Origin: an uncultured Actinomycetes bacterium
GTDB taxonomy: Bacteria > Actinomycetota > Thermoleophilia > RBG-16-64-13
Reading direction: 5' to 3'
Length of the DNA: 64,000 nt
Assembly (NCBI GenBank): GCA_947085635.1
Contig: CAMTXC010000005.1
Coordinates: forward strand, 16,749-80,748
The number at the start of each line of letters is the position of its first letter. Positions within the stretch are counted from its first letter, which is position 1. Below, piece after piece: positions 15,345 through 46,618 of this stretch. A program made the translations under genes and the position numbers. The notes under the pieces are model-generated. The model saw only the letters and a program-made list of their open reading frames with translations, did not search any database and had not been told where the DNA came from.

Positions 15345-15401
15345 CCTTAGGCTGCTCGGCCGGCCGTCGCTCCCTTCCCGGAGGGGTCGCGGGTCGAGCT
15401 C

Positions 15402-15452
15402 GGAAGTGAGGACGCTTCCCGCTACGCGCGTTGGCGAGGGGCGTCCTTCTTG
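15402..15452 (+). terminator. Leader C: conserved hairpin overlapping an intrinsic-terminator-like stem (candidate ANTAR target)
   Basis: Hairpin GGAAG-U-GAGGAC-G-CUUCC at 15402-15419. Its 3' arm is also the 5' arm of the stem GGACGCTTC (15410-15418) / GGGGCGTCC (15438-15446), which is followed by TTCTTG. Confidence 0.45.
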
Positions 15453-15510
15453 CCCATATGCCAAGGGAGGCGGAGGGCGGCGAAAACCCGGCACACAGGA
15501 GGGGGCACGT

Positions 15511-28516: not shown

Positions 28517-29866
28517 ATGCGCATGAACGCTGACGAACAGTCGTGGTCCCAACTGTCGCCGGATGAGAAACTCGAACTACGCTGGAAGGCGTTCGTCGAG
28601 GCTCCCATCGATTTCGTCAGCCCGGAGGCCGAAGCGGCCTACCGTTCGAGGGCTACGCGTCTGAAGAAGGCCATTCTTCTCCAAGGCACGCCGGACCGAG
28701 TCCCTGTGACGCCGCTGACACACTACTATCCCGGACGGAGCCAGGGCCTGACGCCATACGACGCCATGCACGACTACCAGCGGGCGGCGGATGCCTGGCT
28801 CCAATCGAACCTCGACCTCCAGCCCGACGCCATGATGGGGCCACTCTTCTCAGCCATCCCGGCCCGGGCCTACGAAATCCTCGATGTCAAGATCATGAGT
28901 TGGCCGGGGCACGGGGCCCCCATGGAAGGGGGCTTCCAGTACAACGAGGCCGAGTGGATGCGCGCAGACGAATACGATCTGCTCATGGACGACCCGACGG
29001 ACTTCTTCCTTCACGTCTACATGCCCCGTGTCGCCACTGGGTTGGAAGGGCTGGCCGGTCTGGTCTCTCCGCAGGACATGATCGAGATAGTCACTGGGCC
29101 TGCCTATTGGATGCGCTGGGCCAGTCCCGAGGTGCTGGAGACTCTCGAGAAGCTCGCGGCGGCCGGGCGCGAGGCCCAAGCGTGGGGAGCCGCTATGTTC
29201 CCGATGCTCGGCCGTTTGGTAGCCGAAGGGTTCCCGGGCCCGACCGGGGCCATGTCCAAAGCCCCGTTCGACATCCTGAGCGACACCCTGCGCGGCACTC
29301 GCGGCCTCATAATGGACATGTTCAATCAGCCGGATACCGTGCTCGAAGCCTGCGACCGACTCGTTCCCTTCGCCGTCAAGTGGGTGACCAGAAGGGCGAC
29401 TCCCCAGAGTCCTCCGCTGGTCTTCATCCCTCTCCACAAGGGAGCCGACGGGTTCATGAGCGACGAGCAGTTCAAGACGTTCTACTGGCCGAGTCTGCGC
29501 AAGGTGATGCTGGGGCTCATCGAGGACGGCTTTGTGCCCTGTCCATTCGCCGAGGGCGGCTACAACGACCGGCTCGAGGCTATCCGCGACCTGCCGCCAG
29601 GCCGGACTGCCTGGCACTTCGACCGCACCGACATGCGTCGGGCCAAGGAGGCCATGGGCGGCATAGCCTGCATCGAAGGCAATGTGCCTCCTTCACTGCT
29701 CAACTTGGGCACCCCCGAGCAGGTGACGGCCTACTGTCGTGATCTGATCGAGGCGGTTGCCCCGGGAGGCGGCTTCATCCTCGATGGCGGCTCCGTGATC
29801 GACGAGGCCAAGGTCGAGAACATGCAGGCGATGGTTCAGGCGGCTCAGGACTACGGCGTCTACTAG
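28517..29866 (+). CDS. Uroporphyrinogen-decarboxylase (URO-D) family protein, probable corrinoid-dependent methyltransferase
   Basis: N-terminal KKAILLQGTPDRVPV and C-terminal GNVPPSLLNLGTPEQV...GGGFILDGGSVI...ENMQAMV are typical of MtaA/URO-D-like methyltransferases. Lies directly downstream of the corrinoid protein. Alternative ATG at 28523. Confidence 0.7.
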   Translation: MRMNADEQSWSQLSPDEKLELRWKAFVEAPIDFVSPEAEAAYRSRATRLKKAILLQGTPDRVPVTPLTHYYPGRSQGLTPYDAMHDYQRAADAWLQSNLDLQPDAMMGPLFSAIPARAYEILDVKIMSWPGHGAPMEGGFQYNEAEWMRADEYDLLMDDPTDFFLHVYMPRVATGLEGLAGLVSPQDMIEIVTGPAYWMRWASPEVLETLEKLAAAGREAQAWGAAMFPMLGRLVAEGFPGPTGAMSKAPFDILSDTLRGTRGLIMDMFNQPDTVLEACDRLVPFAVKWVTRRATPQSPPLVFIPLHKGADGFMSDEQFKTFYWPSLRKVMLGLIEDGFVPCPFAEGGYNDRLEAIRDLPPGRTAWHFDRTDMRRAKEAMGGIACIEGNVPPSLLNLGTPEQVTAYCRDLIEAVAPGGGFILDGGSVIDEAKVENMQAMVQAAQDYGVY

Positions 29867-29989: not shown

Positions 29990-30756
29990 TCAAGCCAGCT
30001 GGAAACCGCCGTCCACGTAGAAGGAAGCACCGGTGCAGAAGCTGCTCTCGTCGCACGCGAGGAAGAGCACGAGGTCGGCGACCTCCTCCGGCGTACCGTA
30101 GCGCTTCATCAGCGACGAGGCCGCCAGGTCGGCGGCGCCCTTGGCGGGGTCGTCCGGCGAGAAGGTCCGCTCCAGCTGGTGGATCATGGGGGTCTCGATC
30201 ACACCCGGGAGCACGGCGTTCACGCGGATACCGGCGGGAGCGTACTCCACGGCGGCCGTGCGCATCATGCCCACCACCGCGTGTTTCGTCGCCGAGTACG
30301 CCACGTTCCCCGGCTTGCCGCCCGTGCCCCCTGCCGATGAGATCAGGATGACGCTCCCCCCACCGCGTTCCACCATCAACGGCAACCCGTACTTCAGGGT
30401 GTAGAACACCGCGGTGAGGTTGACGTCGATCACGCGCTTGAAGACGTCGATGGGGTATAGCCCGCGATGTCCGACACGGTTCCCCAGATACCGGCGTTCG
30501 GGAACAGCACGTCGATACCGCCGTACAGCTCCACGGCCGCCGCCAAGGCGGCCTGCACCTGTTCGGGGTCGGTGACGTCGGCCGCGAACCCGCTCACCCG
30601 GGGGCCGGCCGCGGCGGCGACCTCATCGAGCGCCGCTCGATGGAGGTCGACGGCGAGCACGCACGCCCCCTGCTCCGCGAATCGCGTGGTGGTCGCCAGG
30701 CCAAGGCCGGATGCCGCACCCGTTATGACGGCCACTTTATCTTTGAGGCGTCCCAT
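29990..30756 (-). pseudogene. Classical SDR oxidoreductase split by a 1-nt frameshift
   Basis: The N-terminal part (TGAASGLGLA, NAGI) ends ...DIAGYTPSTSSSA*. The next frame continues IDVFKRVIDVNLTAVF...SSAGG...YSATKHAV...PG. The shift maps to the G4 run at 30452-30455. Confidence 0.8.
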
Positions 30757-31265: not shown

Positions 31266-31294
31266 TTGACGCCGTGGGGGCCGGTTGTTATGGT
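31266..31294 (+). promoter_or_regulatory. Candidate mftA promoter
   Basis: TTGACG (31266-31271), 17-nt spacer, TATGGT (31289-31294). Confidence 0.35.
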
Positions 31295-31453: not shown

Positions 31454-31573
31454 ATGACACCGAATGAAGGCGAACTCCATTCAGACGACCTTGCGGCCGA
31501 CGTCGACCCCGAGGTCATCGACGAGATAGAAGTGGAGGACCTGGCGGTCGACGGCATCTGCGGCGTCTACTAG
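31454..31573 (+). CDS. mftA: Mycofactocin precursor peptide
   Basis: 39-aa ORF below the track cutoff: MTPNEGELHSDDLAADVDPEVIDEIEVEDLAVDGICGVY*. It has an acidic leader and the hallmark C-terminal (I/V)DG(M/I)CGVY. GGGAGGA lies 7 nt upstream and mftB follows immediately. Confidence 0.9.
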   Translation: MTPNEGELHSDDLAADVDPEVIDEIEVEDLAVDGICGVY

Positions 31574-31599: not shown

Positions 31600-31848
31600 A
31601 TGAAGACCTATCACCTGTCTCCCTGGGCCCGTGCGCGGCAGGAACAGTTCGGGCTCCTCTTCTACGATACCCGCAGCACCACCATGACGTTCGTGCGTTC
31701 GGGCGCGTGCCTCGTCGCCCCCCCGTTCGAAGATCGAGCCCGCCCGCTGCGGATCGTGTCGGGCTCGCGGGCCGAGGAGCTGCGCGTGACCCGCGTGCTC
31801 GAGCATCTCGAGGCCAAAGGACTCGTCGTTGCCACAGAGTCTCACTAG
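31600..31848 (+). CDS. mftB: Mycofactocin biosynthesis chaperone (PqqD-like RRE)
   Basis: 82 aa. HLSPWARARQEQFGLLFYDTRS pattern, positioned between mftA and the radical SAM gene. Confidence 0.85.
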   Translation: MKTYHLSPWARARQEQFGLLFYDTRSTTMTFVRSGACLVAPPFEDRARPLRIVSGSRAEELRVTRVLEHLEAKGLVVATESH

Positions 31849-32857
31849 CGCGCGCCTGCGGGCGCCCGTAAACGTCACCTGGGAGATCACGGATCGTTGC
31901 AACCTCGGGTGCCGGCACTGCCTGTCGGCCGACCTGCGCCGGGGGAGCCGGGGCGAGCTCGATCGGGCGCGGTGCGAAGCTCTGATCGACGAGCTGGCGG
32001 CGATGCAGGTGTTCCAGATCAACTTCGGTGGCGGTGAGCCCTTCCTCAGGCCGGACTTCTTGGATATCCTCCGCTACGCCCAGGCGAAGGGCATCGTCAC
32101 CTGCGTGAGCACCAACGGTACCCTGCTCACCCCGGCCCTGGCGGACGAGCTTGTGGGCCTGGAACTGCTCTTCCTGCAGGTGAGCCTGGACGGAGCCCGC
32201 CCGGAGACGAACGACGCCATCCGCGGCGCGGGTACCTTCGAGCGCATCATAGAGGGCGTCTCCCTGCTCGCGCGGCGATCTTTCCCCGACCTGAGCCTCA
32301 ACATGGTAGTGACCAGCACGAACTTCCATGAGATCGGGGATTTTCACCTCCTCGCCGGCCGGTACGGAGCGCGCACCCGGCTCTCCCGCTTCCGGCCTTC
32401 CGGCGACGGTTCGCGCATGTGGGAGCAGTACCGCCTGAGCCGCGAGCAACTGGCGTGGCTCTCTGAGTTCCTTGGCGAGCACGCGGAGATCCTCACCGGC
32501 GACTCCTTCTTCTCGCTCACGAACGCGGATCGCAGGAATCAGGGTCTGCGGAGCTGCGGTGCCGCCCGGATGACCTGTGCCGTAGGGCCCGACGGCAGCG
32601 TGTTCCCCTGTGCGTTCCTGTGCGAGCCCGCGTTCTTGGCCGGCAACGTGGCGGATGACTCATTGGCCTCTATCTTCGAGCACGCTCCGATCATGGAGGT
32701 GCTACGAGAGCTCGAGGTCGAGCCGTGCCAGACGTGTGACAGGTTCTCCCTCTGCAACGGCGGATGTCCCGCGGTGGCGTACTTCGTCACCGAGTCGCTG
32801 GGGCTCCCCGACCCCGAGTGTCTGCGCGTGGCGATCCCACGCACCGAGGTGGCGTGA
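31829..32857 (+). CDS. mftC: Mycofactocin radical SAM/SPASM maturase
   Basis: CNLGCRHC radical SAM cluster and a C-terminal SPASM Cys set (CGAARMTCAV...FPCAF...CQTC...CNGGC). TTG start is uncertain. Confidence 0.9.
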   Translation: MPQSLTSARLRAPVNVTWEITDRCNLGCRHCLSADLRRGSRGELDRARCEALIDELAAMQVFQINFGGGEPFLRPDFLDILRYAQAKGIVTCVSTNGTLLTPALADELVGLELLFLQVSLDGARPETNDAIRGAGTFERIIEGVSLLARRSFPDLSLNMVVTSTNFHEIGDFHLLAGRYGARTRLSRFRPSGDGSRMWEQYRLSREQLAWLSEFLGEHAEILTGDSFFSLTNADRRNQGLRSCGAARMTCAVGPDGSVFPCAFLCEPAFLAGNVADDSLASIFEHAPIMEVLRELEVEPCQTCDRFSLCNGGCPAVAYFVTESLGLPDPECLRVAIPRTEVA

Positions 32858-34806
32858 TGCAGTTCCCCCTTCTGTTCTCGCCGCTGCGGATCGGCCGGGC
32901 TGAGGTGCCCAACCGCATCTCGTTCTCGGCGCACCTCACCAACCTGGCGGAGCACGGACTACCCACCGAGCGGCTCACCCACTACCTCGCCGCCCGGGCG
33001 CGCGGCGGCGCGGGCCTCATCATCACCGAGGAGCAGTCGGTGCACCCCACCGACCGGGCCTACGAGCACCTCATAGAGGCCTTCCGCCCCGAGGTGGTGA
33101 CCGGGTACCGGCGGCTGACGCGCGCCGTCCACGAGTTCGACACACGCATCTTCGCCCAGCTGAACCACAACGGGCAGCAGTGCGCTGGCCATCTCTCCCG
33201 ACTGCCCGTGTGGGCGCCCTCACCCATCCCCGATGTCCTCTACCGGGAAGTTCCCAAGGCCATGGAGCTCGAGGACATCGCCGAGGTGATCGAGTACTTC
33301 CGTCGCTCGGCGGTACACGTCCGGGAGGGGGGGTTCGACGGCGTGGAGCTGCAGTTCGGGCACAGCTCCTTGGCGAGGCAGTTCATGTCGCCCCTCACGA
33401 ATTACCGTGGCGACGAGTACGGCGGCGACGCCGAGAAGCGGCTCCGCTTCCCGCTGGAGCTGGTTGCGGCCGTTCGTGAGGCTCTGGGCGCCGACTATAC
33501 CCTCGGGGTGCGTCTGTGCGCGGACGAGCTGATCCCGGGGGGGCTGACCTTGGACGACGCCAAGGACATCGCCCGGCGGATGGAAGCCACCGGGCACCTG
33601 GACTTCATCAACCTCACGCTCTCGACCTTCTACAACCTATACCTGGTGGGTGGGACCATGCACCTGCCTCTCGGGTACACGGTACCCCTGGCTGCCGGTG
33701 TCAAAGAGGCGGTCTCTCTTCCCGTGTTCGCCACGGGTCGCATCAACGACCCGGTATCGGCCGAGCGGGTACTGGCCGATGGGCAGGCCGACATGATCGG
33801 GGTGGTGCGGGGGCAGATCGCCGATCCCGACTTCGCCCGCAAGGCTCGGGACGGCCGCACGGACGACATCCGCTACTGCATCGCCTGTAACCAGAACTGC
33901 TACGGGCGGGTGGGGCTCAATCGTTCCATCGGCTGCGTGCAGAACCCGGCGGTCGGCGCCGAGGCGACCGAAGGTGAGCTGTGGCTCAAGCCCACCAGGA
34001 ACCGGAAGCGCGTGCTGGTGGTGGGGGGCGGGCCCGCGGGCATGTGGGCGGCGAAGACCGCCGCGCTGCGAGGCCACGACGTCACCCTGTACGACGAGGG
34101 CGACCAGCTGGGCGGTCAGGTGCTGATCGCGGCCAAGGGCGGCGGTCGCGACGAGTTCGGGGTGATCGTGCGCAATGAGCGCAAGCAGCTGGAGCGACTG
34201 GGCGTGCCCGTGGTCCTCGGCACCCAGGTGACCCCGAAGCTGGTGGTGGAGCTGAAGCCCGATGCCGTCATCGTGGCTACGGGGTCCCGGCCCAAAGCGT
34301 GCCCCGTCGCCGGCGGCGACGGACCCGACGTGGTGAACGTCTGGCAGGTGCTGAACGACGAGGCGGAGCTGGGAGAGCGGATCGTCCTGATCGACTACGA
34401 CGGCCACCACCAGGCGACGGCGACCGCGGAGACGCTCGCCGACCGTGGCAAGAAGGTGCACGTAGTGACCTCGAGTCTGTTCGTGGGCGCGGAGCTGGGG
34501 CCGTCGCAGGATCTGTACCTCTCACGCCAGCGTCTCCTGCAGAAGGGAGTGACGTTCACCCCCGACTTCGCCGTGATGGAGATCAAAGGCACCGAGATCC
34601 ACGGGTTCAACGTGTACTCGAACGAATGGGACGTTATCGGCCCCTTCGACACTGTGGTGACGGCCATGGGCAACGACGCCGACGACGCCCTGTATTTCGC
34701 CCTGAAAGGGTCGGTCGCGGAGCTCTACCGGGTGGGGGACTGCGTCGCGCCCCGTAAGGTAGACATGGCCATCCTCGAGGGGTACGCGGCCGGCAAGCGG
34801 GTATGA
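32857..34806 (+). CDS. OYE-like FMN / 4Fe-4S / FAD flavoprotein (2,4-dienoyl-CoA reductase / trimethylamine dehydrogenase family)
   Basis: N-terminal old-yellow-enzyme TIM barrel (NRISFSAH..., GGAGLIITEE, FDGVELQFGHS). Cluster motif CIACNQNCYGR...IGC. Then VLVVGGGPAGMWAA and a second nucleotide-binding domain. ATGA overlap with mftC. Confidence 0.85.
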   Translation: MQFPLLFSPLRIGRAEVPNRISFSAHLTNLAEHGLPTERLTHYLAARARGGAGLIITEEQSVHPTDRAYEHLIEAFRPEVVTGYRRLTRAVHEFDTRIFAQLNHNGQQCAGHLSRLPVWAPSPIPDVLYREVPKAMELEDIAEVIEYFRRSAVHVREGGFDGVELQFGHSSLARQFMSPLTNYRGDEYGGDAEKRLRFPLELVAAVREALGADYTLGVRLCADELIPGGLTLDDAKDIARRMEATGHLDFINLTLSTFYNLYLVGGTMHLPLGYTVPLAAGVKEAVSLPVFATGRINDPVSAERVLADGQADMIGVVRGQIADPDFARKARDGRTDDIRYCIACNQNCYGRVGLNRSIGCVQNPAVGAEATEGELWLKPTRNRKRVLVVGGGPAGMWAAKTAALRGHDVTLYDEGDQLGGQVLIAAKGGGRDEFGVIVRNERKQLERLGVPVVLGTQVTPKLVVELKPDAVIVATGSRPKACPVAGGDGPDVVNVWQVLNDEAELGERIVLIDYDGHHQATATAETLADRGKKVHVVTSSLFVGAELGPSQDLYLSRQRLLQKGVTFTPDFAVMEIKGTEIHGFNVYSNEWDVIGPFDTVVTAMGNDADDALYFALKGSVAELYRVGDCVAPRKVDMAILEGYAAGKRV

Positions 34807-35849
34807 GCCGAGGCGCGGATGTCCTGGTGGTGCTCGTGTCCGAAGTCGAGGGCCGAGACGGTGCCGTCGCGGCGCTCCAAGCCGAGGCCGGGCGCATCGC
34901 CCGGGCGCTCGGCGGCAGGCTGACGGCCGTGGAGATAGCGCGTGCCGCCGGCCCCGATGTCGAGGCGTCGGTGGAGGTCCTCGCTGCCCATGTGCGTGCG
35001 CTTCACCCGCGCGTGGTCCTCATGCTCGACGGCGACCTGAGCCGTGAGCTCGCTCCGCGTCTGGCTCTGGCATCCGGCAGCTCCGCCATAGTGGGCTGCA
35101 CCGGCGTCGCCGCCGGGGGTGGCACTACCGTTTACTCCAAGCCGGTTTACGGCGGATGGCTCGAGCAGGAGCTCTCCTACGCAGATGGCTCGCTGGAGGT
35201 CGCCACCCTGGTCGGGGGCGCCCTCTCCCCGGCGCCGGCCGTGCTCCAGGCCACGGCGCCCGCCGGGGTGCCGGACGCGGCGCCGGCCGTGCTCCAGGCC
35301 ACGGCGCCCGCCGGGGTGACGGACGCGGCGCCCGCCGGGGTGACGGACGAGCCTGCCGTTCGCCGCCTTGAGCTCGTGCCCCCCGACTACCGGACCGTCG
35401 ACATAGTGCACGCCAGGCGGATAGTGGCGGCCGGCATGGGCGTCTCCGCCGTCGCACCCGCGCCTGCCGGCCCCGCGCCCGTCGCCGGGGCTGTCGTGGA
35501 GCCGGTCGCCGACGACGAGCTGATGGACTACGTGCAGGAGCTCGCCGAGCTCCTGGAGGGTTCGGTCGCCGCCACCCGCCCCGTGGTGGACGAGGGGCGT
35601 CTGCCCAAGGAGCGGCTTGTCGGGCAGACAGGCAAGACGGTGGCGCCGGAGCTGTATCTGGCACTGGGGATCTCTGGGTCTCCGCACCACCTGGCTGGGA
35701 TCCAGGGAGCCGGGACCATCATCGCCGTCGACCGGGACCCGGCGGCCCCTATCTTCCAGTTCGCGGACGCCGGCTACGTTGCCGATCTCAGCGAGATCCT
35801 GCCCGCGCTCATCCGGAGGATCAAGGAGTGGCGAGATGGCAGGGGCTGA
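34803..35849 (+). CDS. fixB: Electron transfer flavoprotein alpha-subunit-like (FixB)
   Basis: C-terminal FAD domain VGQTGKTVAPELYLALGISGSPHHLAGI...IIAVDRDPAAPIF. Confidence 0.85.
   Translation: MSRGADVLVVLVSEVEGRDGAVAALQAEAGRIARALGGRLTAVEIARAAGPDVEASVEVLAAHVRALHPRVVLMLDGDLSRELAPRLALASGSSAIVGCTGVAAGGGTTVYSKPVYGGWLEQELSYADGSLEVATLVGGALSPAPAVLQATAPAGVPDAAPAVLQATAPAGVTDAAPAGVTDEPAVRRLELVPPDYRTVDIVHARRIVAAGMGVSAVAPAPAGPAPVAGAVVEPVADDELMDYVQELAELLEGSVAATRPVVDEGRLPKERLVGQTGKTVAPELYLALGISGSPHHLAGIQGAGTIIAVDRDPAAPIFQFADAGYVADLSEILPALIRRIKEWRDGRG
35232..35351 (+). repeat. In-frame 48-nt tandem duplication (2.5 copies) in the FixB interdomain linker
   Basis: Units at 35232-35279 and 35280-35327 differ at one position. 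A 24-nt partial third copy follows. Encodes APAVLQATAPAGV(P/T)D twice, then AAPAGVTDE. Confidence 0.85.
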
Positions 35850-37137
35850 GTTCGACGCCATCGTCGTCGGCGCCGGCCCGGCCGGTTCGACGGCCGCCCT
35901 GACGCTGGCGCAGCAGGGCGTCAGGACATTGCTCCTGGAGCGGGGAGAGCAGCCTGGCTCCAAGAACATGTTCGGTGGCACCCTCGCTTGGTGTCCCGCG
36001 CCGGAGGAGCTTATCCCAGAATTCTGGGAGCAGGCTCCCTGGGAGCGGGAGGTGGTCAAGCGGGTGTTGACGGTGGTGGCCGAGAGTTCGGCCACATCCG
36101 TGGTGTTCCGGTCCGACGACGTCGGCAGGCCGTTCCGGGGCCGCGTCACTCTCTTCCGTCCCATCTTTGATCGCTGGCTGGCCGAGCAGGCCGAGTCCGC
36201 TGGAGCCACCCTGGTGTGCGGCTGTATGGTCGACGGCTTGGTCGTCCGGGGTGGCGTGGTGCGCGGAGTCCGGGTGGCCCGACCGGAAGGCGTTCTGGAG
36301 GCGCCTCTGGTGGTGGCGGGCGATGGGGCGCTCTCCTTCCTTGCCAGAGAGGCGGGTCTGCACGGGGGCGTGCGCGCCGAGCAGATGGCGGTGGGTGTAC
36401 GGGCCCTCTACTCGCTGGACGAAGAGGACATCGACAAGCGCTTCGGCCTCGTGCGTGGGCAAGGGGCGACGAACGAGTTCCTGGGCGGGACGGAAGGCGT
36501 GCGCGGTGGGGGCTTCATCTACACGCAGACGGACAGCCTCTCGGTGGGGCTGGTGCTCCATCTCGACTCGCTCAAGGCCCGCGGGCTCGCCCCCTACGAC
36601 CTCCTGGAGAGGTTCGTGAGCTCGGCGCACGTGGCTCCGCTTCTGCGAGGAGCCCGGTTGGTGGAGTACTCCGCCCATCTTGTGCCCGAAGCGGGTCTCT
36701 CCATAGTGCCGCGTCTCTCCGCGGGAGGGTTCATGGTGACCGGAGACGCCGGTGGTCTCTGCTACACGAACGGCCTGACCATGGAAGGCATGAACCTGGC
36801 GATCACCTCGGGTCACACGGCCGGCCTCGTCGGCGCCGAGGCGCTCGCGGCCGGGGACGTGTCGGCGCATCGCCTTCGGGCCTACGACGACCGCCTGCGG
36901 GAAAGCTTCGTGTTCCGGGACATGAAGACCTACGACCGGGCGATCAAGCTCCTGCGGCGTGACCGCCTGTTCTCCGACTATCCCGAAGTCGTGAGCGCGG
37001 TGATGGAGCGGCTCTACGCGTCCGACGGGAGACCCAAACGGAAGATCAGCGCGATCGCGCGCGAGGCCCTCCGTGGCCGTGTTCCGCTGCGCGACGTGGC
37101 GGCCGATCTGATCAGCATAGGGAGGTCGTACCTGTGA
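35836..37137 (+). CDS. fixC: FAD-dependent ETF:quinone-oxidoreductase-like protein
   Basis: FDAIVVGAGPAGSTAALTLAQQGVRTLLLERGEQPGSKNMFGG closely parallels the FixC N-terminus. Track ORF trimmed to ATG 35836. Confidence 0.85.
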   Translation: MAGAEFDAIVVGAGPAGSTAALTLAQQGVRTLLLERGEQPGSKNMFGGTLAWCPAPEELIPEFWEQAPWEREVVKRVLTVVAESSATSVVFRSDDVGRPFRGRVTLFRPIFDRWLAEQAESAGATLVCGCMVDGLVVRGGVVRGVRVARPEGVLEAPLVVAGDGALSFLAREAGLHGGVRAEQMAVGVRALYSLDEEDIDKRFGLVRGQGATNEFLGGTEGVRGGGFIYTQTDSLSVGLVLHLDSLKARGLAPYDLLERFVSSAHVAPLLRGARLVEYSAHLVPEAGLSIVPRLSAGGFMVTGDAGGLCYTNGLTMEGMNLAITSGHTAGLVGAEALAAGDVSAHRLRAYDDRLRESFVFRDMKTYDRAIKLLRRDRLFSDYPEVVSAVMERLYASDGRPKRKISAIAREALRGRVPLRDVAADLISIGRSYL

Positions 37138-37409
37138 ATCTCGACGACATCTTCGATCTCGTGAGCTATCGGATCCACCCCGATGCCCACATCGTCGTGG
37201 ACCATACCACCTGCTTATCCTGTCTCCATCGCGCGTGCACGTTCGCGTGCCCGGCACGCTGCTATGAATGGAACGAGGGACGCGGACGGGTGGATTTTGC
37301 GTATGAGTCGTGCCTGGAGTGCGGCACCTGTCTTCTGGTGTGCGATCGGGGAGCCCTTGAGTGGAGCTACCCGGTGGGAGGCTACGGTGTGCGGTTCCGG
37401 GCGACGTGA
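37134..37409 (+). CDS. fixX: Ferredoxin-like protein FixX
   Basis: HIVVD...C..ACPARCYEW...FAYESCLECGTC...EWSYPVGGYGVRFR is the FixX signature. GTG overlaps the fixC stop. Confidence 0.85.
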   Translation: MNLDDIFDLVSYRIHPDAHIVVDHTTCLSCLHRACTFACPARCYEWNEGRGRVDFAYESCLECGTCLLVCDRGALEWSYPVGGYGVRFRAT

Positions 37410-37416
37410 GTGGATC

Positions 37417-38436
37417 ATGAGCCACGTGCGTCACTCGTGGATGGGGCCGACGGCGGAGAACGATGACGGGCGGGGCCGCCTAGTGAGACTCTTGGTGCTC
37501 CTGGAGCCGTCGGACGACGTGCGCATCCCGCCTCAGCGAGATCGGCGTTCGGGCGGGATGCGCACCGAGCGGCAGGTGCGCCGGCCGGATCCGGCCGGCG
37601 CCCGCGCTCTCGACATCGCGCTCGCGCTGAGGGCGGCTCGGCCCGGTACGGAGGTCGTCTCAATGCTTCTCGGCTCCGAGAACGACGACACCTTCCTCCG
37701 AGAGACCCTCGCTCGGGGCTGCGATGAGGCCATCCGCATATGGGACGAGGAGTGTCTCCGCCTGCACGCCCCCGGCAAGGCCGTGATACTGGCGGCGGCC
37801 GCCCGGGCCGCCCGCTGTGGCCTGGTGCTGACAGGGGCGGCGAGCGAGACTACGGCGTCGGCCCAGGTGGGCGTCCTGGTGGCCGCCCACCTGGGCGTGC
37901 CTTGTGTCACACAGGCCGTGGATCTCGAGGTGCCGGCCGGGGGGCTCGAGGGATCGCCGGTGCGCGCCACCGGCGTGGGCCCGGCAGTCGCGCCCGGCCC
38001 GGTGCGCGCCACCCGCGGACTGGCCGGCGGCTTCCGAGAGATCGTGGAGGTGTCGCCGCCGGCGGTGATCACATTCGTGCCCGCGGAGCCTGACGTCTCG
38101 GTCGCCCCGCTCATCGCGATTCTCGATGCGCACTCTCGTCAGATCCCGGTATGGGACCTGGCCGAGCTCGGCGTCCCGCGCGAGGACGTCCGCCGCGCCG
38201 ATGGATCGCTGCGCTATGGGCGCCTGCGCACTCCGCGGCCGACCGTGCGAGGTGTGCCCGCTCCCGATTCCGCAGCCCCGGCGTTCGAGCGCATCGGGGA
38301 ACTCGTGCGCGGGACTGTGCGACGGAGGGATGGGCGGGTGTCCAGCCGACCGGTGGAGGAGTTGGCGGACGAGCTGTTCCAGGCGCTGCGCGACGGAGGG
38401 TGGCTGGACCACCTGCGTCAGGGGGAGATGGAGTGA
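37417..38436 (+). CDS. fixA: Electron transfer flavoprotein beta-subunit-like (FixA) with a C-terminal extension
   Basis: PDPAGARALDIALAL...GCDEAIRIWD...LVLTGAASETTASAQVGVLVAAHLGVPCVTQA...PPAVITF matches the ETF-beta fold pattern. It is about 80 aa longer than typical, and the start is uncertain. Confidence 0.75.
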   Translation: MSHVRHSWMGPTAENDDGRGRLVRLLVLLEPSDDVRIPPQRDRRSGGMRTERQVRRPDPAGARALDIALALRAARPGTEVVSMLLGSENDDTFLRETLARGCDEAIRIWDEECLRLHAPGKAVILAAAARAARCGLVLTGAASETTASAQVGVLVAAHLGVPCVTQAVDLEVPAGGLEGSPVRATGVGPAVAPGPVRATRGLAGGFREIVEVSPPAVITFVPAEPDVSVAPLIAILDAHSRQIPVWDLAELGVPREDVRRADGSLRYGRLRTPRPTVRGVPAPDSAAPAFERIGELVRGTVRRRDGRVSSRPVEELADELFQALRDGGWLDHLRQGEME

Positions 38437-39968
38437 TCCCGCTCTCTTACCGGCTCCGCGAAGGCGTTCGGATTGAGACGGCCGGCACCGGGTGGACGGC
38501 GGTGTCCGAGCTGCCCCTGGCCGTGGTCCGGGTGAACGCGGCGGCCGCCAGGTTGCTCGAACTCACGCGGGGAGGGAGCCGAGTGGCCGACCTGGCGGCC
38601 GCCCTCTCCACCGACCAGGAACGCATCCTCCATCTGTGCGAGTACTTCCGGCGCCGGGGCATGCTCGATGTCGACCTTTCGCCTGCCGCGGACGCGGGCA
38701 GCGCAGCCGGGCCGTCGATCTCTGTGATCGTGCCCACCAAGGACCGTGCGGACGAGCTCGAGGACTGCCTGGTCGCGCTGTTCGCGATGGACTACCCGCG
38801 CGAGAGGTTCGAGGCGATCGTGGTGGACGACGGTTCGCGCGACGACACTGCGGACGTCGCGCGCAGACATCCGTGCCGGTACCTCGCCAATGATCGGAAC
38901 CGCGGGCAGTCGTACTCGCGCAATGTGGGGGCCCGGGCGGCGTCGGGGGAGATCCTGGCCTTCATCGATAGCGATTGCGTCGCCTCCCCCGAGTGGTTGC
39001 GTGAGCTCGTCCCGTTCTTCTCGTGGCCTGCGCTCGCCGCCGTCGGCGGTTTCGTGGCCGGATACCACGACGAGTCCCGGCTCGATCGCTACGAGCAGGC
39101 GGCCTCTTCCCTCAATATGGGGGACCGTCTGATCCTGATGGCAGACGACCGCTCGATGTCCTACGTGCCCACATGCAACCTGCTCGTGCGCAGGGAGGCC
39201 TACCTCGCTCTTGGCGGGCTCAGGGAGGACCTGCGTGTGGGCGAAGATGTCGATCTGTGCTGGCGACTGCGGGCGGCGGGGTGGCGCCTGGTCTACTCGC
39301 CTACCGGCACAGTCAGGCATCGCCACCGCAACCGCCTGCGTGAGATGCTCAAGCGCCGCGCTGCGTACGGCACCTCGGAAGCGACACTCCACGCCCTCCA
39401 CCCCGACAAGCGCAAGACGATGCCCGTGCGCTTCCTGCCGGCGCTGACCGCGGTGATCGTCGCCGCGGCGGCGGTGGGGCTCGAACCGCGGTTGCTTCCG
39501 CTCTGTCTGGTGCCCCTGGCGGGCGACGGCGTGCGCAGCAGTGTCCGCCTGGCGCGCGAGGGCGTCCAGGTCCGCTCGAGCCGGGTGTGGTTCGCCGCGA
39601 TCCGGGGCCACCTGTCGTTCCTGTATTCGGTGTCGTTCCACCTGGTCCGCTACTACCTTGTGGTGCTCGTGGCGGCGGGGCTCGCGGCACCGGGCCTCTG
39701 GCTTCTGGCGCTCGCCGCACTCGTCTACGTGGCGGCCGTGGACTACGTGGTGAAGCGGCCGCGGCTGGCCTTCCCTGTCTTCCTGTGGTTCTCACTGGCG
39801 GAGCACGCGGCGTATCAGGTTGGCGTCCTCGCCGGGTGCGTGCGCCGGGGTACCTTCCGCTCCTACGTGGTCAGGTTCGGCCGGGCCGAGGGGCCCGGCC
39901 GCGTCGGTCGCGCTTCCGGGGTGCTCCGTTCCTCCGTTCGCTTCGGGCGGGCCCCCTCCGGCTTGTAG
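38433..39968 (+). CDS. mftF: Mycofactocin-system glycosyltransferase
   Basis: PqqD-like N-terminal segment, then a GT2 core (ISVIVPTKDRADEL, VVDDGSRDDT, AFIDSDC, GEDVDLCWR) and C-terminal TM helices. GTG 38433 overlaps the fixA stop. Confidence 0.8.
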   Translation: MIPLSYRLREGVRIETAGTGWTAVSELPLAVVRVNAAAARLLELTRGGSRVADLAAALSTDQERILHLCEYFRRRGMLDVDLSPAADAGSAAGPSISVIVPTKDRADELEDCLVALFAMDYPRERFEAIVVDDGSRDDTADVARRHPCRYLANDRNRGQSYSRNVGARAASGEILAFIDSDCVASPEWLRELVPFFSWPALAAVGGFVAGYHDESRLDRYEQAASSLNMGDRLILMADDRSMSYVPTCNLLVRREAYLALGGLREDLRVGEDVDLCWRLRAAGWRLVYSPTGTVRHRHRNRLREMLKRRAAYGTSEATLHALHPDKRKTMPVRFLPALTAVIVAAAAVGLEPRLLPLCLVPLAGDGVRSSVRLAREGVQVRSSRVWFAAIRGHLSFLYSVSFHLVRYYLVVLVAAGLAAPGLWLLALAALVYVAAVDYVVKRPRLAFPVFLWFSLAEHAAYQVGVLAGCVRRGTFRSYVVRFGRAEGPGRVGRASGVLRSSVRFGRAPSGL

Positions 39969-40914: not shown

Positions 40915-43128
40915 GTGTGGTATTCGGAGGCGGTAGGGTTGACACTCGAGGGTCCCACGGCCGACGCCGTCACCGGGTGCCAGGGCGCAACCCGCGATCG
41001 TGTTCCCAGGTTGACACACGAGGTAGTCGCCGCTTATCATCCCTGTTGTCAGACGTTAGACTCCGTCGTGCTGGCCGTGGTGGAGTCAGACCTCCTGTTC
41101 GGCGTGGGAGTGGCGCATGGGTTCAGGCCTACGAAGCGGCGCGCGGTGGTCACCCGGGTGGAAGGCCACGTGGTGCACGAGATCGACGACCGTCCCGCGG
41201 CCGACGCCTGCGCGGATCTCATGGGTGTGGATGCTATCGGCGTCTATGACCAGACCGCCCAGTTCTCGCGGACCCCCTTCGGCGCCGCCGACGTGTACGG
41301 CGAGCACCACCTCCTCGTACTCGAGCGCGCCCTCGGCGACGGTTCGGTGCAGTTCGCGCCGAACATGGAGGGGATGCAGGCCATCACCGTGATGGAGACG
41401 GATCCGGAGAAACAGGCGACGGCGGCCCGGGAGGCCGTCGCCAAGGCGATCGACATCGGTCATGTGCAGGATCCGGCGGCCGTGTTCCTGTTCGTTTGCT
41501 CCATACTGTTCAGTGGGGACGCTCACGGGCCGCTGATGAACGAGCGGTCCCTGGAGCGGGTCGCGGGAGACGCCACGGTCGCCGGCTTCCACACGTTCGG
41601 AGAGTACGGTCTGAGCGACGAAGGCCTGCCCATCTACTGCAACCAATCGGTCGTCGCTCTCGTCATCGGCGACAAACTCGATCGCCTGGCGGCGGCCACG
41701 CGTCGCAACGCGAACGCGCTCAAGGAGATCGAAACCGAGTTGGAAGGCCGGACTAGGGAGCTGGCGGCCGTGAGAGCGGCGAACTCGATCGTGCTCGACA
41801 GTGAGAACTGGCCGAATTCGCTCGGTCGATACGAACGCATCATCAGCGATCTGACGGGCGCGCGGCACGCACGCTTCCAAGTGGATGTCGTTGGAGCGGC
41901 CGGAGCGGAGCTGACTGTCCCGCCCCGCCCGCTGCATGTGAACCAAGCGATCTTGCCGCTCACCAGCATGGGTCGGTCTCTGGGGTTCCTGGAGCTCGAC
42001 GGTGAGAAGGGGCTGCTCAGCTTGGAGGTGGCCGGCAGCATCTGCGACCTCGTGGCCCGCGCCGTTCACCGGCTTGTGATGGAGCGCACCATCGAAGAGC
42101 AGGCGCGGGAGATAGAGACGGTGAACGTGATCGCCCGCGAGATCGTGAACGCGGACAACAACCGCTCGGCGCTCATCAACATCGCCAGAGTGATCGAAGA
42201 GCATCAGGGGGCGCGCGGGTTCTCCTTGTGGTTGAATGGCGATGCACCCGAGCTCCTAGGGTGGGATGGTCCGTCGGAGGATCTCGAGGTCGAGTGTGCC
42301 CTTGTATCTCGTGTGCTCGAGTCGCGAACCATCGAGCGGAGCATGAGCGGGGGCATCGTTCGGATCGTCTCTCCCCTTCTCCTCAAAGACCGGGCCAACG
42401 GCGCGCTCGTGCTGAGGTTCGCGGCCGACAGCGTCCCGCTGGGTCTGGCCTTCCTCAACTACCTCTCCATGCCGCTGGCGGTCATGGCCGAGATGTACGT
42501 GAGGTACCGCGAGTCGAACGTGGCCCGGGAGATGCACCATCGGGTGAAGAACAACCTGCAGATCATCGCCAGCCTGCTGAATCTGCAATTGCGCCGCCTG
42601 CAGGATCCATCGGCCAAGGAAGCTCTCGAGAGCAGCATCCGGCGCATCATGAGCATCGCCGTCGTACACGAGGTTCTGTCGGAACGGTACACCGGGCTCG
42701 TCGATCCGGTGTCCATCGTACAGAACGTATCCGATTCCGTGCTGCGTGCGATGTCGGGCCCGAACCAGGCGATCTCGGTGTCGGTGAAGGGTCAACCGGG
42801 TCTGACGTTGAACTCGCAGCAGGCGACGAGCGTGGCGGTGGTTGTGAACGAGCTTCTTGGGAACGCCCTCAAGCACGGATTTCGGGAACGTGCGGAGGGT
42901 CGGATCTCGGTCGATCTCGGTCAGGAGAACGGGTCGTTCACGCTCGTCGTGAGGGACGATGGCGACGGCCCTCCCGAGGGATTCGATCTCTCGCGCGACC
43001 AGGGTCTTGGGCTGCAACTCATCGGGACGATCGTGGCGGGCGAGCTTCGCGGGGACTTCACGGTGGGCGGGGGAGGGTCGGGGATGGAGGCCAGCGTCAC
43101 CTTCCCGCGTGATCCGGTGCATGGATAG
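40915..43128 (+). CDS. Sensor histidine kinase: partial FIST domain, GAF-like region, HisKA_2, HATPase
   Basis: FIST_C-like GFHTFGEYG, a coiled linker, HHRVKNNLQIIASLLNLQ (HisKA_2) and NELLGNALKHGF...GLGLQLI. The N-terminal FIST part looks short and the start is uncertain. Confidence 0.8.
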   Translation: MWYSEAVGLTLEGPTADAVTGCQGATRDRVPRLTHEVVAAYHPCCQTLDSVVLAVVESDLLFGVGVAHGFRPTKRRAVVTRVEGHVVHEIDDRPAADACADLMGVDAIGVYDQTAQFSRTPFGAADVYGEHHLLVLERALGDGSVQFAPNMEGMQAITVMETDPEKQATAAREAVAKAIDIGHVQDPAAVFLFVCSILFSGDAHGPLMNERSLERVAGDATVAGFHTFGEYGLSDEGLPIYCNQSVVALVIGDKLDRLAAATRRNANALKEIETELEGRTRELAAVRAANSIVLDSENWPNSLGRYERIISDLTGARHARFQVDVVGAAGAELTVPPRPLHVNQAILPLTSMGRSLGFLELDGEKGLLSLEVAGSICDLVARAVHRLVMERTIEEQAREIETVNVIAREIVNADNNRSALINIARVIEEHQGARGFSLWLNGDAPELLGWDGPSEDLEVECALVSRVLESRTIERSMSGGIVRIVSPLLLKDRANGALVLRFAADSVPLGLAFLNYLSMPLAVMAEMYVRYRESNVAREMHHRVKNNLQIIASLLNLQLRRLQDPSAKEALESSIRRIMSIAVVHEVLSERYTGLVDPVSIVQNVSDSVLRAMSGPNQAISVSVKGQPGLTLNSQQATSVAVVVNELLGNALKHGFRERAEGRISVDLGQENGSFTLVVRDDGDGPPEGFDLSRDQGLGLQLIGTIVAGELRGDFTVGGGGSGMEASVTFPRDPVHG
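41050..41061. promoter_or_regulatory. Operator-like site CAGACGTTAGAC inside the annotated 5' end of the kinase ORF
   Basis: GTCAGACGTTAGAC has the same one-T-insertion variant as 18678-18688. Confidence 0.3.
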
Positions 43129-43756
43129 CGGGAGAGGCCGGGTGGAGGGGCTGCGAATACTGATAGTCGACGACGAGTCCATCATCCGCATGGATCTGCG
43201 GGAGATGCTCACCGAGATGGGACACGACGTCGTGGGTGAAGCCGATGACGGAGATAAGGCCGTGAGTCTGGCCCGGAGCCTCGATCCCGATCTCATGTTC
43301 CTTGACATCAAGATGCCGCGGATGGACGGTCTCGAGGCGCTCCGCCTGATGAACCGTGAAGACGCGCGGCCCGTGGTCGTGCTGACGGCGTTCAGTGAGC
43401 GGTCGGTGATCGAACAGGCTGTCGAGCTCGGGGCGAGGGCGTATCTGGTGAAGCCCTTCGAGTCGGCCAACCTGCTGCCCGCCATACATCTGGCGATGGC
43501 TCACTCCTCGGAGCTGCGCGCTCTGCGCGACGAGAACGAGTCGCTCAAGGAGGCGATACGCGCGAGCAGGCTGGTGAATCGCGCGAAAGCCCTCCTCGCG
43601 GAGCAGGAGGGGATCAACGAGCACGAAGCATTCAGGCGGATCCAGAAACTCAGCATGGACAAGAACAGGAAGATGGCGGACATCGCTGAGGCGATCATCA
43701 CGCTTTTTGCCAAGGACCGGGCGGCGCAGGGGGCCGGAGCCACTCGGACTTCTTGA
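43121..43756 (+). CDS. Response regulator with ANTAR RNA-binding output domain
   Basis: Receiver domain (ILIVDDE...DLMFLDIKMPRMDG) plus ANTAR helices (RLVNRAKALLAEQEGINEHEAFRRIQKLSMDKNRKMADIAEAI). Overlaps the kinase stop. Confidence 0.9.
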   Translation: MDSGRGRVEGLRILIVDDESIIRMDLREMLTEMGHDVVGEADDGDKAVSLARSLDPDLMFLDIKMPRMDGLEALRLMNREDARPVVVLTAFSERSVIEQAVELGARAYLVKPFESANLLPAIHLAMAHSSELRALRDENESLKEAIRASRLVNRAKALLAEQEGINEHEAFRRIQKLSMDKNRKMADIAEAIITLFAKDRAAQGAGATRTS

Positions 43757-43781
43757 CACTCCCCAGAGCGAGTTGTATCTT
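43753..43781 (+). promoter_or_regulatory. Candidate promoter of the AOR operon
   Basis: TTGACA (43753-43758), 17-nt spacer, TATCTT (43776-43781). Confidence 0.4.
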
Positions 43782-43832
43782 CTGACTGTGGTCCTGGCTG
43801 ACGGCAGCGAGTCGTGCAACTGGGGTCAGTGT

Positions 43833-43886
43833 GGAAGTGATGGCGCTTCCCGGCGCGGTGATGGGTCCGTGTGGGGGGCGCTTTTT
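43833..43886 (+). terminator. Leader B: conserved hairpin overlapping an intrinsic terminator (candidate ANTAR target)
   Basis: Hairpin GGAAG-U-GAUGGC-G-CUUCC at 43833-43850. Terminator stem GCGCTTCCC (43843-43851) / GGGGGGCGC (43873-43881), 9 bp including 2 G-U pairs, followed by TTTTT. Confidence 0.5.
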
Positions 43887-43942
43887 GTGTTGGTCGGGGC
43901 TGCGTGGCGGCGCTCGGCAAGGGTACCGGCGGAAGGAGTGGC

Positions 43943-45834: not shown

Positions 45835-46125
45835 GTGATCCGGGTCACGGCTCGCACCGCCCTCCACCTCGCGACGCTCCTCCGAAGTCGTGAGGTGGAG
45901 TTGGAGGTGCCCGCGGGCGCTTCCGTCATGGATGTCCTAGTCCGGTTGGCCGATCGGATGGGGGAGCAGTCCGTTCCGGCGCTTCTCGAGCCGCAGAGTG
46001 GGAGACCGCAGCGTCATCTGAGAATAATGCTGAACGGGCGGGATATTGGGATCCTCGGTGGGCTCGACGCCGTTGTCAAGGAGGGTGACGACGTCTTGGT
46101 CATACCGCCCGCCGGGGGAGGCTGA
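45835..46125 (+). CDS. MoaD/ThiS-family ubiquitin-like protein
   Basis: About 96 aa ending ...DVLVIPPAGGG*. The C-terminal Gly-Gly and position after AOR fit the family. GTG start. Confidence 0.75.
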   Translation: MIRVTARTALHLATLLRSREVELEVPAGASVMDVLVRLADRMGEQSVPALLEPQSGRPQRHLRIMLNGRDIGILGGLDAVVKEGDDVLVIPPAGGG

Positions 46126-46138
46126 GAGAGGAGCTGTC

Positions 46139-46618
46139 ATGAAGACCGTCGCCGCCGTCGTACACGAGCAGGGTGGGCCGTTCTTGCTCGAAGAGGTGTC
46201 CCTGGATGAGCCCCGCGCGGACGAGGTGCTCGTTCGCATGGTGGCTACCGGCCTCTGCCACACCGATCTCTCGGTTCGAGCCGGCTATATCCCGTTCCCG
46301 CTTCCGGGCGTGATGGGGCACGAGGGTGCAGGAATTGTCGAGGCGGTCGGTTCCGCGGTGAAGCGCGTCGCCCCCGGCGATCGCGTGCTGGCCACCTTCA
46401 CCTCATGCGGGCATTGCGCCAACTGCACGGGTGGCGAGCCTGCCTACTGCCACACGTTCATACCGTCGAATCTCGTCGGTGGCACGCGCTCTGACGGCAG
46501 CTACACCAAACTGCCGCTCGAGCGCATGATCCGCTGTTACCCGTTCGAAGACATCGAGCTGGCCGCCGCCGACGCCGCTGCGGGCGCGACCATCAAGCCG
46601 GTCTTGGTATTCGACTGA
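46139..46618 (+). pseudogene. Zinc-ADH derivative lacking the Rossmann domain (in-frame internal deletion)
   Basis: Intact N-terminal catalytic domain (CHTDL, GHEGAG, CGHCANCTGGEPAYC) runs directly into a typical ADH C-terminal tail (YPFEDIELAAADAAAGATIKPVLVFD). It is 159 aa, against about 370 aa expected. Confidence 0.6.

Follow-up and report, generated by a model that had tools for sequence, protein, structure and literature searches.

A mycofactocin operon with a TIGR03997 Fe-S flavoprotein and its own electron transfer flavoprotein: a proposed replacement for MftD

Mycofactocin systems and the OYE2 operon

Mycofactocin biology has been worked out almost wholly in mycobacteria, for the proteins MftA to MftF and MftG. 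In Mycobacterium smegmatis, MftC forms a cross-linked Val-Tyr lactam, AHDP is released by the peptidase MftE, oxidative deamination of AHDP by MftD yields premycofactocin with its α-keto-amide redox centre (-255 mV), and MftF adds glucose units; all mycofactocins were lost in the ΔmftD strain, whereas the ΔmftE strain still made them via background peptidases (PMC7491314). In mycobacteria mycofactocinol is re-oxidised by MftG (PMC11778925). Some species with mycofactocin lack MftD and MftE (Haft 2011), and neither that study nor the MftG paper explains how the cofactor is made or recycled without MftD or MftG. Here a 64-kb stretch of contig CAMTXC010000005.1 from an uncultured Thermoleophilia bacterium (the window, meaning the whole 64-kb stretch; GC content 66-70%) was analyzed, in which a 649-aa Fe-S flavoprotein of family TIGR03997, called OYE2 for its Old Yellow Enzyme (OYE)-type barrel, is encoded between mycofactocin genes and genes of an electron transfer flavoprotein (ETF).

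With moderate confidence, OYE2 is read here as a dehydrogenase that works on C3 of the mycofactocin lactam with ETF as its partner and would replace MftD and perhaps MftG, passing its electrons via EtfAB and FixCX to quinone. MftD is oxygen-dependent, and OYE2 probably does the same job without oxygen. OYE2 is the fourth gene of a nine-gene operon, in which stops and starts overlap or nearly touch throughout:

31266-31294, + strand: sigma-70-like promoter candidate upstream of mftA (TTGACG-17-TATGGT, 9 of 12 matches, TG extension)
31454-31573, + strand: mftA, 39-aa mycofactocin precursor ending ...VDGICGVY (small open reading frame (ORF); a 39-aa gene is also called on the Logan contig L001)
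31600-31848, + strand: mftB, peptide chaperone (TIGR03967, 36 bits against a cutoff of 33)
31829-32857, + strand: mftC, radical SAM/SPASM maturase (TIGR03962, 335 bits against 265; Pfam Radical_SAM and SPASM)
32857-34806, + strand: OYE2 (TIGR03997, 945.5 bits against 793)
34803-35849, + strand: etfA, ETF alpha, FixB-like (Pfam ETF_alpha and ETF; mft_etfA NF038209, 112 bits)
35836-37137, + strand: fixC, ETF:quinone oxidoreductase-type flavoprotein (FixC NF007450/NF007542, 308-314 bits; Pfam ETFQO_UQ-bd)
37134-37409, + strand: fixX, ferredoxin-like protein of the 2x[4Fe-4S] type (FixX NF011993, E 2.5e-12; Pfam Fer4 dicluster matches)
37417-38436, + strand: etfB, divergent ETF beta, FixA-like (Pfam ETF; mft_etfB TIGR04503, 71.5 bits)
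38433-39968, + strand: mftF, mycofactocin glycosyltransferase (TIGR03965, 378 bits against a cutoff of 280)

The promoter candidate was a weak consensus match only, two such matches being found where 0.6 were expected. At the mftC/OYE2 junction (GTGATGC, 32854-32860) the mftC stop TGA (32855-32857) and the OYE2 ATG (32857-32859) share 1 nt, which agreed with the overlap read in an earlier note on this DNA, and a Shine-Dalgarno-like GAGGTG is located 5-10 nt upstream of the ATG. The frame of OYE2 contains 650 codons, and its stop (34804-34806) overlaps the etfA ATG at 34803 (ATGA). The ETF gene that the earlier note had placed directly downstream was recovered there by Pfam and NCBIfam matches. 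The ORF list also offered an upstream ATG at 32764 (680 aa); since about three quarters of the 120 homologues among the matches listed had 649 aa and the alignment began at residue 1, 32857 was taken as the real start. The codon-position GC of OYE2 (0.71/0.45/0.88) was as in genuine genes of this window. No homologue of MftD, MftE, MftG, MftR or MftM was detected in the 64-kb window by tblastn and by NCBIfam scans of 20 further window genes, and tblastn with three MftD proteins returned nothing in the window.

A gene set recurring across phyla in loci without MftD

One genome per species was scanned, which gave 443 relatives, and the best 80 loci (64-91% identity) were compared. These loci came from Thermoleophilia/Gaiellales, Syntrophorhabdales, Geobacterales/Desulfuromonadales, Dehalococcoidales, Acidobacteriota and Goldiibacteriota, and the block mftB-mftC-OYE2-etfA-fixC-fixX-etfB-mftF was present in all 80 wherever the contig permitted. 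Of the 80 loci, 65 had the mftA peptide, with the C-terminus (I/V)DG(I/V)CGVY, upstream of mftB/mftC; it was undetected in the other 15, many of which had no upstream sequence on the contig. OYE2 directly followed mftC in 73 of 74 relatives with a median gap of 38 nt, the genes overlapping or lying within 20 nt of each other in 27. The genes etfA-fixC-fixX-etfB came after OYE2 in essentially every relative, across phyla and even in rearranged orders, which sustained the dehydrogenase-to-ETF logic put forward in the earlier note. Altogether the gene set mftA-B-C, OYE2, etfA, fixC, fixX, etfB and mftF recurs in more than 90 loci of at least six phyla; because this synteny spans phyla, chance adjacency of OYE2 and the mft genes was excluded.

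Variants of the arrangement were also observed. Locus L087 reads mftABC-OYEx-OYE2-etfA-fixC-fixX-etfB-mftF-SDR-MftE (SDR, short-chain dehydrogenase/reductase; OYEx, our label for paralogues scoring under the cutoffs of both TIGR03997 and TIGR03996), and L091 has the altered order ADH-mftA-OYEx-OYE2-etfA-fixC-fixX-etfB-mftB-mftC-mftF (ADH, alcohol dehydrogenase). In five Streptomyces plasmids, as annotated, the order runs mftA-B-C-OYE1-OYE2-"mycofactocin-associated ETF alpha"-FAD oxidoreductase-4Fe-4S protein-"mycofactocin-associated ETF beta"-(SDR)-mftF-mftE, and two haloarchaeal plasmids carry mftE and mftA-B2-C-F, with etfB-fixX-fixC-etfA-OYE on the opposite strand. The window clade (at least 64% identical, four phyla) has OYE2 only and no MftE nearby, and the Streptomyces clusters have OYE1, OYE2 and MftE; the haloarchaeal and L087 versions likewise include MftE. 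All-against-all clustering of the ORFs of 81 loci revealed no conserved peptidase replacing MftE, and the conserved families were the nine operon genes, ADH, aldehyde:ferredoxin oxidoreductase (AOR) and a few lineage-specific ORFs only. Zn-dependent ADH genes of the N,N-dimethyl-4-nitrosoaniline (NDMA) type lie upstream of mftA in many loci, mycofactocin-coupled SDR genes also adjoin the clusters, and the flanking genes include NDMA-type or Fe alcohol dehydrogenases and AOR.

MftD was found in none of about 96 module loci (within ±10-12 kb). In the reverse comparison, the OYE2-ETF-FixCX module was found in none of 84 MftD loci, of which 80 were metagenomic loci chosen for MftD (63-87% identity; MftC detectable in 24, length at least 8 kb in 34) and four were the annotated canonical clusters of M. 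chubuense, T. roseum, Tsukamurella and Streptomyces NBC_00080, which encode MftD but lack OYE, ETF and Fix genes. In the complete set of plasmids, the four canonical ones were the only carriers of MftD orthologues (at least 62% identity). Across about 180 loci, MftD and the module thus excluded each other, judged by cluster and by replicon. The module directly follows mftC in most of its loci, in the slot that mftD takes in canonical mftABCDE(F) clusters (L004, L006, L100). What is new here is this cross-phylum exclusion in every locus examined, together with a testable mechanism.

Because MftD is essential for mycofactocin formation and MftE is not, a cluster without MftD needs a replacement oxidase and a cluster without MftE does not. 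OYE2 was the sole conserved oxidoreductase available for the MftD step in these clusters. The OYE/ETF-type clusters retain the MftA core GVY, MftB, MftC, MftF and the nicotinoprotein partner families, and for this reason the same redox head group is expected. We infer on these grounds that OYE2 is functionally equivalent to MftD. The two would share a reaction, the oxidation of AHDP at C3, and in most loci they share the slot after mftC, but they are not homologous: MftD (TIGR03966) has the single-domain FMN_dh fold of an α-hydroxy-acid oxidase without Fe-S or ETF, whereas OYE2 is a three-domain Fe-S protein with a dedicated ETF/FixCX, and no FMN_dh (PF01070) similarity was detected in OYE2.

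The same observations bear on the possibility, which we regard as rather unlikely, that the module serves recycling only. OYE2-EtfAB-FixCX would then be a mycofactocinol:quinone oxidoreductase, the counterpart of MftG, and AHDP would be deaminated by an enzyme encoded elsewhere. An ETF combined with FixCX resembling an ETF:quinone oxidoreductase forms a catabolic electron chain of high flux, the NDMA-type or Fe ADH and AOR genes flank the clusters, and transfer from mycofactocin at -255 mV to menaquinone at -74 mV (PMC10734219) would be exergonic. Geobacter pickeringii, Geotalea uraniireducens, Desulfofarcimen acetoxidans and Desulfonema limicola, likely carriers of the module, have MftC but genome-wide no MftG (PMC11778925), which also speaks for the main reading. 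The lack of MftG alone is no signal, however, because MftG occurs in just 235 of 311 mftC genomes, 77 being given as without it (PMC11778925). Recycling only would also leave the essential MftD step unexplained in more than 90 clusters, and would give no reason for the module's specific exclusion of MftD and its position in the mftD slot. MftG is a GMC-type mycofactocinol dehydrogenase that connects to respiration; OYE2, of unrelated fold, may share with it the return of mycofactocinol electrons to the quinone pool, a role that for OYE2 is hypothetical.

A co-regulated catabolic role was considered very doubtful. In this case OYE2 would act on an external enoyl- or aryl-CoA, enone or amine and exchange electrons with ETF or mycofactocin, and the biosynthesis would be untouched. 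Such a role would suit the model in which mycofactocin serves many client oxidoreductases (Haft, PMC3023750), the non-committal NCBI family name and the varying neighbours (ADH, AOR and methyltransferase genes). Clients, however, vary in copy number and position, whereas in at least six phyla one copy of OYE2 sits at a constant place between mftC and mftF or mftE, and its exclusion with MftD is strict.

Domains and active site of OYE2 among characterised flavoproteins

As a sequence family OYE2 is not new, but an ordinary, already named member of the curated family TIGR03997. The profile was matched almost end to end (aa 6-648 against positions 2-644 of 645; 945.5 bits, E 1.4e-284, curated cutoff 793.15 bits), and the mycofactocin cluster expected of a family member was present, with mftA, mftB and mftC directly upstream and mftF downstream in the same operon. 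The nearest database homologues (93% identity, from metagenome-assembled genomes (MAGs) of Thermoleophilia and Actinobacteria) already bear the family name, the active-site signature is common to the Streptomyces members, and nothing sets OYE2 apart from them. The family itself carries no assigned substrate or reaction, and no meaningful link of mycofactocin to ETF, FixABCX, OYE or FadH was found in the literature searched. The following elements were located in OYE2:

32872-33864, + strand: OYE-type FMN barrel, aa 6-336, with the signature AHLTN, TEEQSVH, QLNHNG and ELQFGHSS (Pfam Oxidored_FMN PF00724, E 1e-58)
33877-33936, + strand: 4Fe-4S motif C341-x2-C344-x3-C348-x11-C360, CIACNQNCYGRVGLNRSIGC, aa 341-360 (translation)
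34024-34041, + strand: GGGPAG dinucleotide fingerprint of the FAD/ADP domain, aa 390-395 (G390, G392 and G395 invariant in a 137-sequence alignment)
34381-34419, + strand: β1-loop of the third domain, IVLIDYDGHHQAT, aa 509-521, without GxGxxG (alignment to FadH, trimethylamine dehydrogenase (TMADH) and histamine dehydrogenase (HADH))

Pfam Pyr_redox_2 spans aa 385-614, and GGGPAG aligned to the GAGPAG/GAGPSG motifs of FadH (2,4-dienoyl-CoA reductase), NCR (2-naphthoyl-CoA reductase) and TMADH. The three-domain architecture of the TMADH/FadH type given in the earlier note was borne out by Pfam, phmmer and the structural superpositions; its OYE barrel, its 4Fe-4S motif and the first of its two dinucleotide-binding domains stood, while the second (aa about 505-600) was found without a binding fingerprint, VLIDYDGHHQ replacing GxGxxG. 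The third domain is Rossmann-shaped, with no recognisable NAD(P)H site. The β1-loop position is likewise without the fingerprint in TMADH (ILNADTYF) and HADH (VYDDDHYY). The hexad D-Y-D-G-H-H was tried as a conserved new binding site and dropped, distant OYE2 proteins keeping only D...G. In several OYE2 homologues (Dehalococcoidales, Syntrophorhabdales and L095, with L027 and L038 among the loci concerned) the second cluster Cys, C344 in the window (nt 33886-33888), is replaced by Asp (CIADNQGC), and some family members may accordingly have a cluster that is Asp-ligated or of the 3Fe type.

The AlphaFold model of OYE2 was built from the 137-sequence alignment (pLDDT 97.8, pTM 0.94), and a model from a 12-sequence alignment (pLDDT 61.8) was discarded. 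The model superposed full-length on NCR, FadH, HADH, TMADH and the 6-HPON amine oxidase 6l6j with query-normalised TM-scores of 0.91-0.95, all so close that the fold search could not tell the reductase from the amine-dehydrogenase subfamilies. In phmmer searches of solved structures, NCR (6qkg, 295 bits) and FadH of E. coli (1ps9, 277 bits) scored best, and TMADH, HADH and 6l6j gave about 195-198 bits. After TIGR03997, the next named profiles were BaiCD (420 bits), TIGR03996 (384 bits) and the bilirubin reductase BilR (343 bits), all far under their cutoffs. A neighbour-joining tree, rough and without bootstrap support and with TMADH/HADH as outgroup, placed the mycofactocin-linked proteins (OYE2, distant OYE2 and OYEx) in a clade of their own inside a large uncharacterised radiation, with FadH and NCR as a sister pair separate from it. 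Residues were mapped from HMMER alignments and a reference alignment, the bowl residues being counted by hand. Tyr166 and His252 are catalytic residues of FadH (1ps9). The corresponding positions were:

FadH Tyr166, His252 and Glu164 (catalysis): Ser171, Tyr259 and His169 in OYE2
FadH NADPH site IIGCGGIG (VAIIGCGGIG): LIDYDGHH (IVLIDYDGHH) in OYE2
TMADH Cys30 (6-S-cysteinyl FMN): Leu27 in OYE2
TMADH aromatic bowl Tyr60, Trp264 and Trp355: Glu59, Leu261 and Val352 in OYE2
TMADH active-site His172: His169 in OYE2, kept
OYE motif HxxH(N)GY (carbonyl pair and Tyr donor): Q166-F-G-H169-S-S171 in OYE2

Leu27, Ser171 and Tyr259 were invariant within the clade. The Fe-S spacing of OYE2 is that of FadH and NCR (C-x2-C-x3-C-x11-C), and TMADH and HADH have C-x2-C-x2-C-x12-C. 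Like NCR and FadH, the best-scoring solved structures, OYE2 carries this spacing and the GGGPAG-type FAD fingerprint (TM-score to FadH 0.91); unlike them, it has Ser171 for their Tyr, and the NADPH motif of FadH is replaced. With TMADH and HADH, to which the TM-score was 0.94-0.95, it has in common FMN, 4Fe-4S, the ADP/FAD fold, a third domain without the NAD(P)H fingerprint and the conserved His; it differs in lacking the flavinylation Cys and the bowl, in the Fe-S spacing and in a score (198 bits) under those of NCR and FadH.

Since the catalytic residues, the NADPH motif, the bowl and the Fe-S spacing differ, OYE2 is not orthologous to FadH or to TMADH/HADH. The phylogenetic placement and the inspection of the Cys and the bowl that the earlier note had proposed thus put OYE2 in its own mycofactocin-linked clade with both TMADH features missing; clear orthology to FadH, which together with acyl-CoA-binding residues and NADPH dependence would in that note's view make a mycofactocin- or ETF-linked role unlikely, was rejected on the loss of Tyr166, His252 and the NADPH GxGxxG, as was an amine site of the TMADH/HADH type on the loss of Cys30, the bowl and the spacing. 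An ordinary FadH or small-amine dehydrogenase of the TMADH/HADH type next to mftC by chance, although it would have the same three-domain fold and Fe-S motif and, for TMADH, ETF as known acceptor, is therefore effectively refuted by the residue and synteny tests, the cross-phylum mft synteny and the own clade with mycofactocin-linked paralogues being added to the missing residues.

A tailoring function is also improbable, though less so than the catabolic role or a chance neighbour. OYE2 would act on the MftC product by reducing or introducing a C=C bond, or through another redox edit, with ETF as donor or acceptor, giving a variant cofactor without the keto-amide. That the nearest profiles and structures are C=C reductases (BaiCD, BilR, NCR and FadH), that Gln166 and His169 are kept where the carbonyl-binding pair of OYE sits and that some clusters have two OYE paralogues would be in keeping with this function. 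On the other side, of the carbonyl pair and Tyr proton donor of classical OYE ene-reductases only the second His is kept, the Tyr of OYE/FadH being replaced by Ser171; the MftA core and MftF are unchanged, and the same nicotinoprotein partners (mycofactocin-coupled SDR and NDMA-type ADH) argue for the same redox head group. The signature AHLTN/TEEQSVH/QLNHNG/ELQxxHSS/GVRLC was kept out to Streptomyces OYE2 at 49% identity, from which one conserved reaction across the family was argued.

As for the partner ETF, the best NCBIfam matches of the window EtfA and EtfB were mft_etfA (112 bits, cutoff 240) and mft_etfB (71.5 bits, cutoff 200), both below the cutoffs; RefSeq names the ETFs of the Streptomyces clusters as mycofactocin-associated ETF members. 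The FAD site of the electron-transfer flavin is conserved in EtfA (TRPVVDEG...GQTGKTVAPELYLALGISGS), and FixC carries the quinone-binding domain of ETF:quinone oxidoreductase (Pfam). The downstream genes are FixB-, FixC-, FixX- and FixA-like, and the matches among solved structures include EtfABCX of T. maritima (7koe) and other bifurcating ETFs. In contrast to FixABCX/EtfABCX, the order here is alpha-C-X-beta, the EtfB zipper is of neither type, and the proposed electron entry is via an Fe-S flavoprotein and not NADH. The zipper is DGDTAQ in bifurcating ETFs, where it holds the second FAD, and DDDSNQ in canonical ones (PMC8958531). In the window EtfB it is degenerate (TTASAQ, variable among relatives), which makes a second, bifurcating FAD in EtfAB unlikely. 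A bifurcating ETF of the FixAB type was thus unsupported, DGDTAQ being missing; bifurcation by the window EtfAB appears unlikely from its sequence, and a simple carrier with a single FAD is indicated instead. Within etfA, 35230-35337 holds a 48-bp tandem repeat (2.2 copies, 96% matches) encoding APAVLQATAPAGV(P/T)DA in the ETF alpha linker. EtfA has 348 aa in the window against 332 aa in the otherwise matching contig L001, and as the difference is exactly one 48-bp unit, the copy number of the repeat varies between assemblies or strains.

Proposed electron path and genes around the operon

The substrate, the direction of electron flow and the quinone sink of the module are what we infer in the following scheme. 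OYE2 would be the substrate-oxidising subunit of a five-protein oxygen-independent module (OYE2, EtfA, EtfB, FixC and FixX) in an alternative mycofactocin system. The FMN barrel would bind the lactam head group made by MftC, as AHDP or its glycosides and probably also mycofactocinol, and FMN would take a hydride from C3, so that the C3 amine (or hydroxyl) becomes an imine or ketone and the redox-active α-keto-amide is formed. Electrons would leave singly via the 4Fe-4S cluster, possibly via the FAD of the second domain, and pass through the single FAD of the dedicated EtfAB to FixX/FixC and menaquinone. In this way the module would cover the role of MftD, and plausibly that of MftG, in lineages without them, many of which are anaerobes.

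By analogy, C-N bond oxidation has known precedent on this scaffold in TMADH, HADH and the amine oxidase 6l6j. ETF is the natural electron acceptor of TMADH, and PDB 1o94 is the TMADH-ETF complex. TMADH and HADH, which depend on ETF, also have no NAD(P)H fingerprint, and its absence from OYE2 supports ETF as the electron partner there; the flanking alcohol dehydrogenases and AOR fit an alcohol-oxidation unit feeding the quinone pool. Among the substrates suggested in the earlier note, a small free amine was disfavoured by Leu27, Glu59, Leu261 and Val352, and AHDP deamination or mycofactocinol oxidation was favoured by the exclusion of MftD. Since a five-gene chain is heavy for biosynthesis and the reaction type at C3 is the same, the module plausibly also re-oxidises mycofactocinol. 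That one Fe-S flavoprotein both creates the keto-amide (the MftD role) and re-oxidises the reduced cofactor (the MftG role), quinone-coupled and without oxygen, is offered as a tentative extension only.

Several points weigh against OYE2 as the replacement for MftD. A five-gene chain of respiratory type is excessive for a step made once per cofactor, which favours a turnover role instead or additionally. The sequence of OYE2 is nearer to C=C reductases (NCR, FadH and BaiCD) than to amine dehydrogenases, and the flavinylation Cys and aromatic bowl of TMADH are missing. The NAD(P)H fingerprint is also missing in 130 of the 132 nearest 50%-identity cluster representatives, and because it is so common among relatives its loss cannot serve as a clade-specific argument. 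Many clusters have a second Fe-S flavoprotein paralogue directly before OYE2, TIGR03996 OYE1 in Streptomyces and OYEx in MAGs, and the two may divide the labour between them; in the paralogues at L087 (7968-10004), L091 (7147-9054) and L097 (13194-15236) the conserved His169 or the HSS signature is lost. The absence of MftD applies to ±10-30 kb and to each replicon, not to whole genomes, and no function or biochemical data for any TIGR03997 member were found in the literature searched.

The five-gene module is the replacement to which these loci point, and it is widespread, occurring in Streptomyces plasmids, haloarchaea, Geobacter, Dehalococcoidia, Syntrophorhabdia and Thermoleophilia. The prediction is oxidation of AHDP or mycofactocinol coupled to ETF. 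If true, it would assign a function to the orphan family TIGR03997 and to the "mycofactocin-associated ETFs", extend the known chemistry of the TMADH/FadH scaffold, and tie mycofactocin to anaerobic respiration and syntrophic alcohol oxidation. If the dual MftD/MftG role were true, there would be a second, widespread and largely anaerobic mycofactocin system that wires alcohol/aldehyde oxidation to menaquinone. If the prediction fails, OYE2 stays an ordinary, already named family member.

Other genes of the window were also recorded. An NDMA-type Zn-ADH is encoded at 15340-16620 (TIGR03989, 318 bits, under the cutoff of 440). A 190-aa ORF at 46046-46618 (+) matched only the N-terminal 120 or so residues of the NDMA-dependent, mycofactocin-type Zn-ADH (TIGR03989, 116 bits) and, judged by this partial match, looks like a truncated gene remnant. 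An SDR of the mycofactocin-coupled type at 29990-30756 (-) is divided into two ORFs (108 and 147 aa) with a 4-nt overlap, TIGR03971 being among the top matches of its C-terminal half. The split was repeated in the independent Logan assemblies L001 and L002, and in L007 the halves share one frame and the gene looks intact, so it is likely a frameshift pseudogene in this strain. Downstream of the operon, 40915-45817 (+) encodes a FIST-domain histidine kinase, an ANTAR response regulator and a tungsten-type AOR. AOR also directly follows mftF in most Geobacter-lineage loci, so the cluster may be surrounded by a conserved unit for alcohol/aldehyde oxidation.

Upstream of the cluster, a URO-D/MtaA-like methyltransferase gene lies at 28517-29866 (+), and two B12-binding domain proteins are encoded upstream of the cluster in L002 (103-2138). 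A corrinoid methyltransferase system thus adjoins the mycofactocin operon, and a UROD-like gene also follows etfB in L034. Further away, a 528-aa ORF at 48992-50578 (-) looks like a TrpF-TrpA fusion: its aa 1-212 match phosphoribosylanthranilate isomerase and its aa 277-510 the alpha subunit of tryptophan synthase, without an intervening trpB. The trp operon genes trpE, G, D and C lie upstream of it at 50575-54681. A heliorhodopsin gene was found at 61986-62747 (-), with NF038020 matched at 311 bits against a cutoff of 100.

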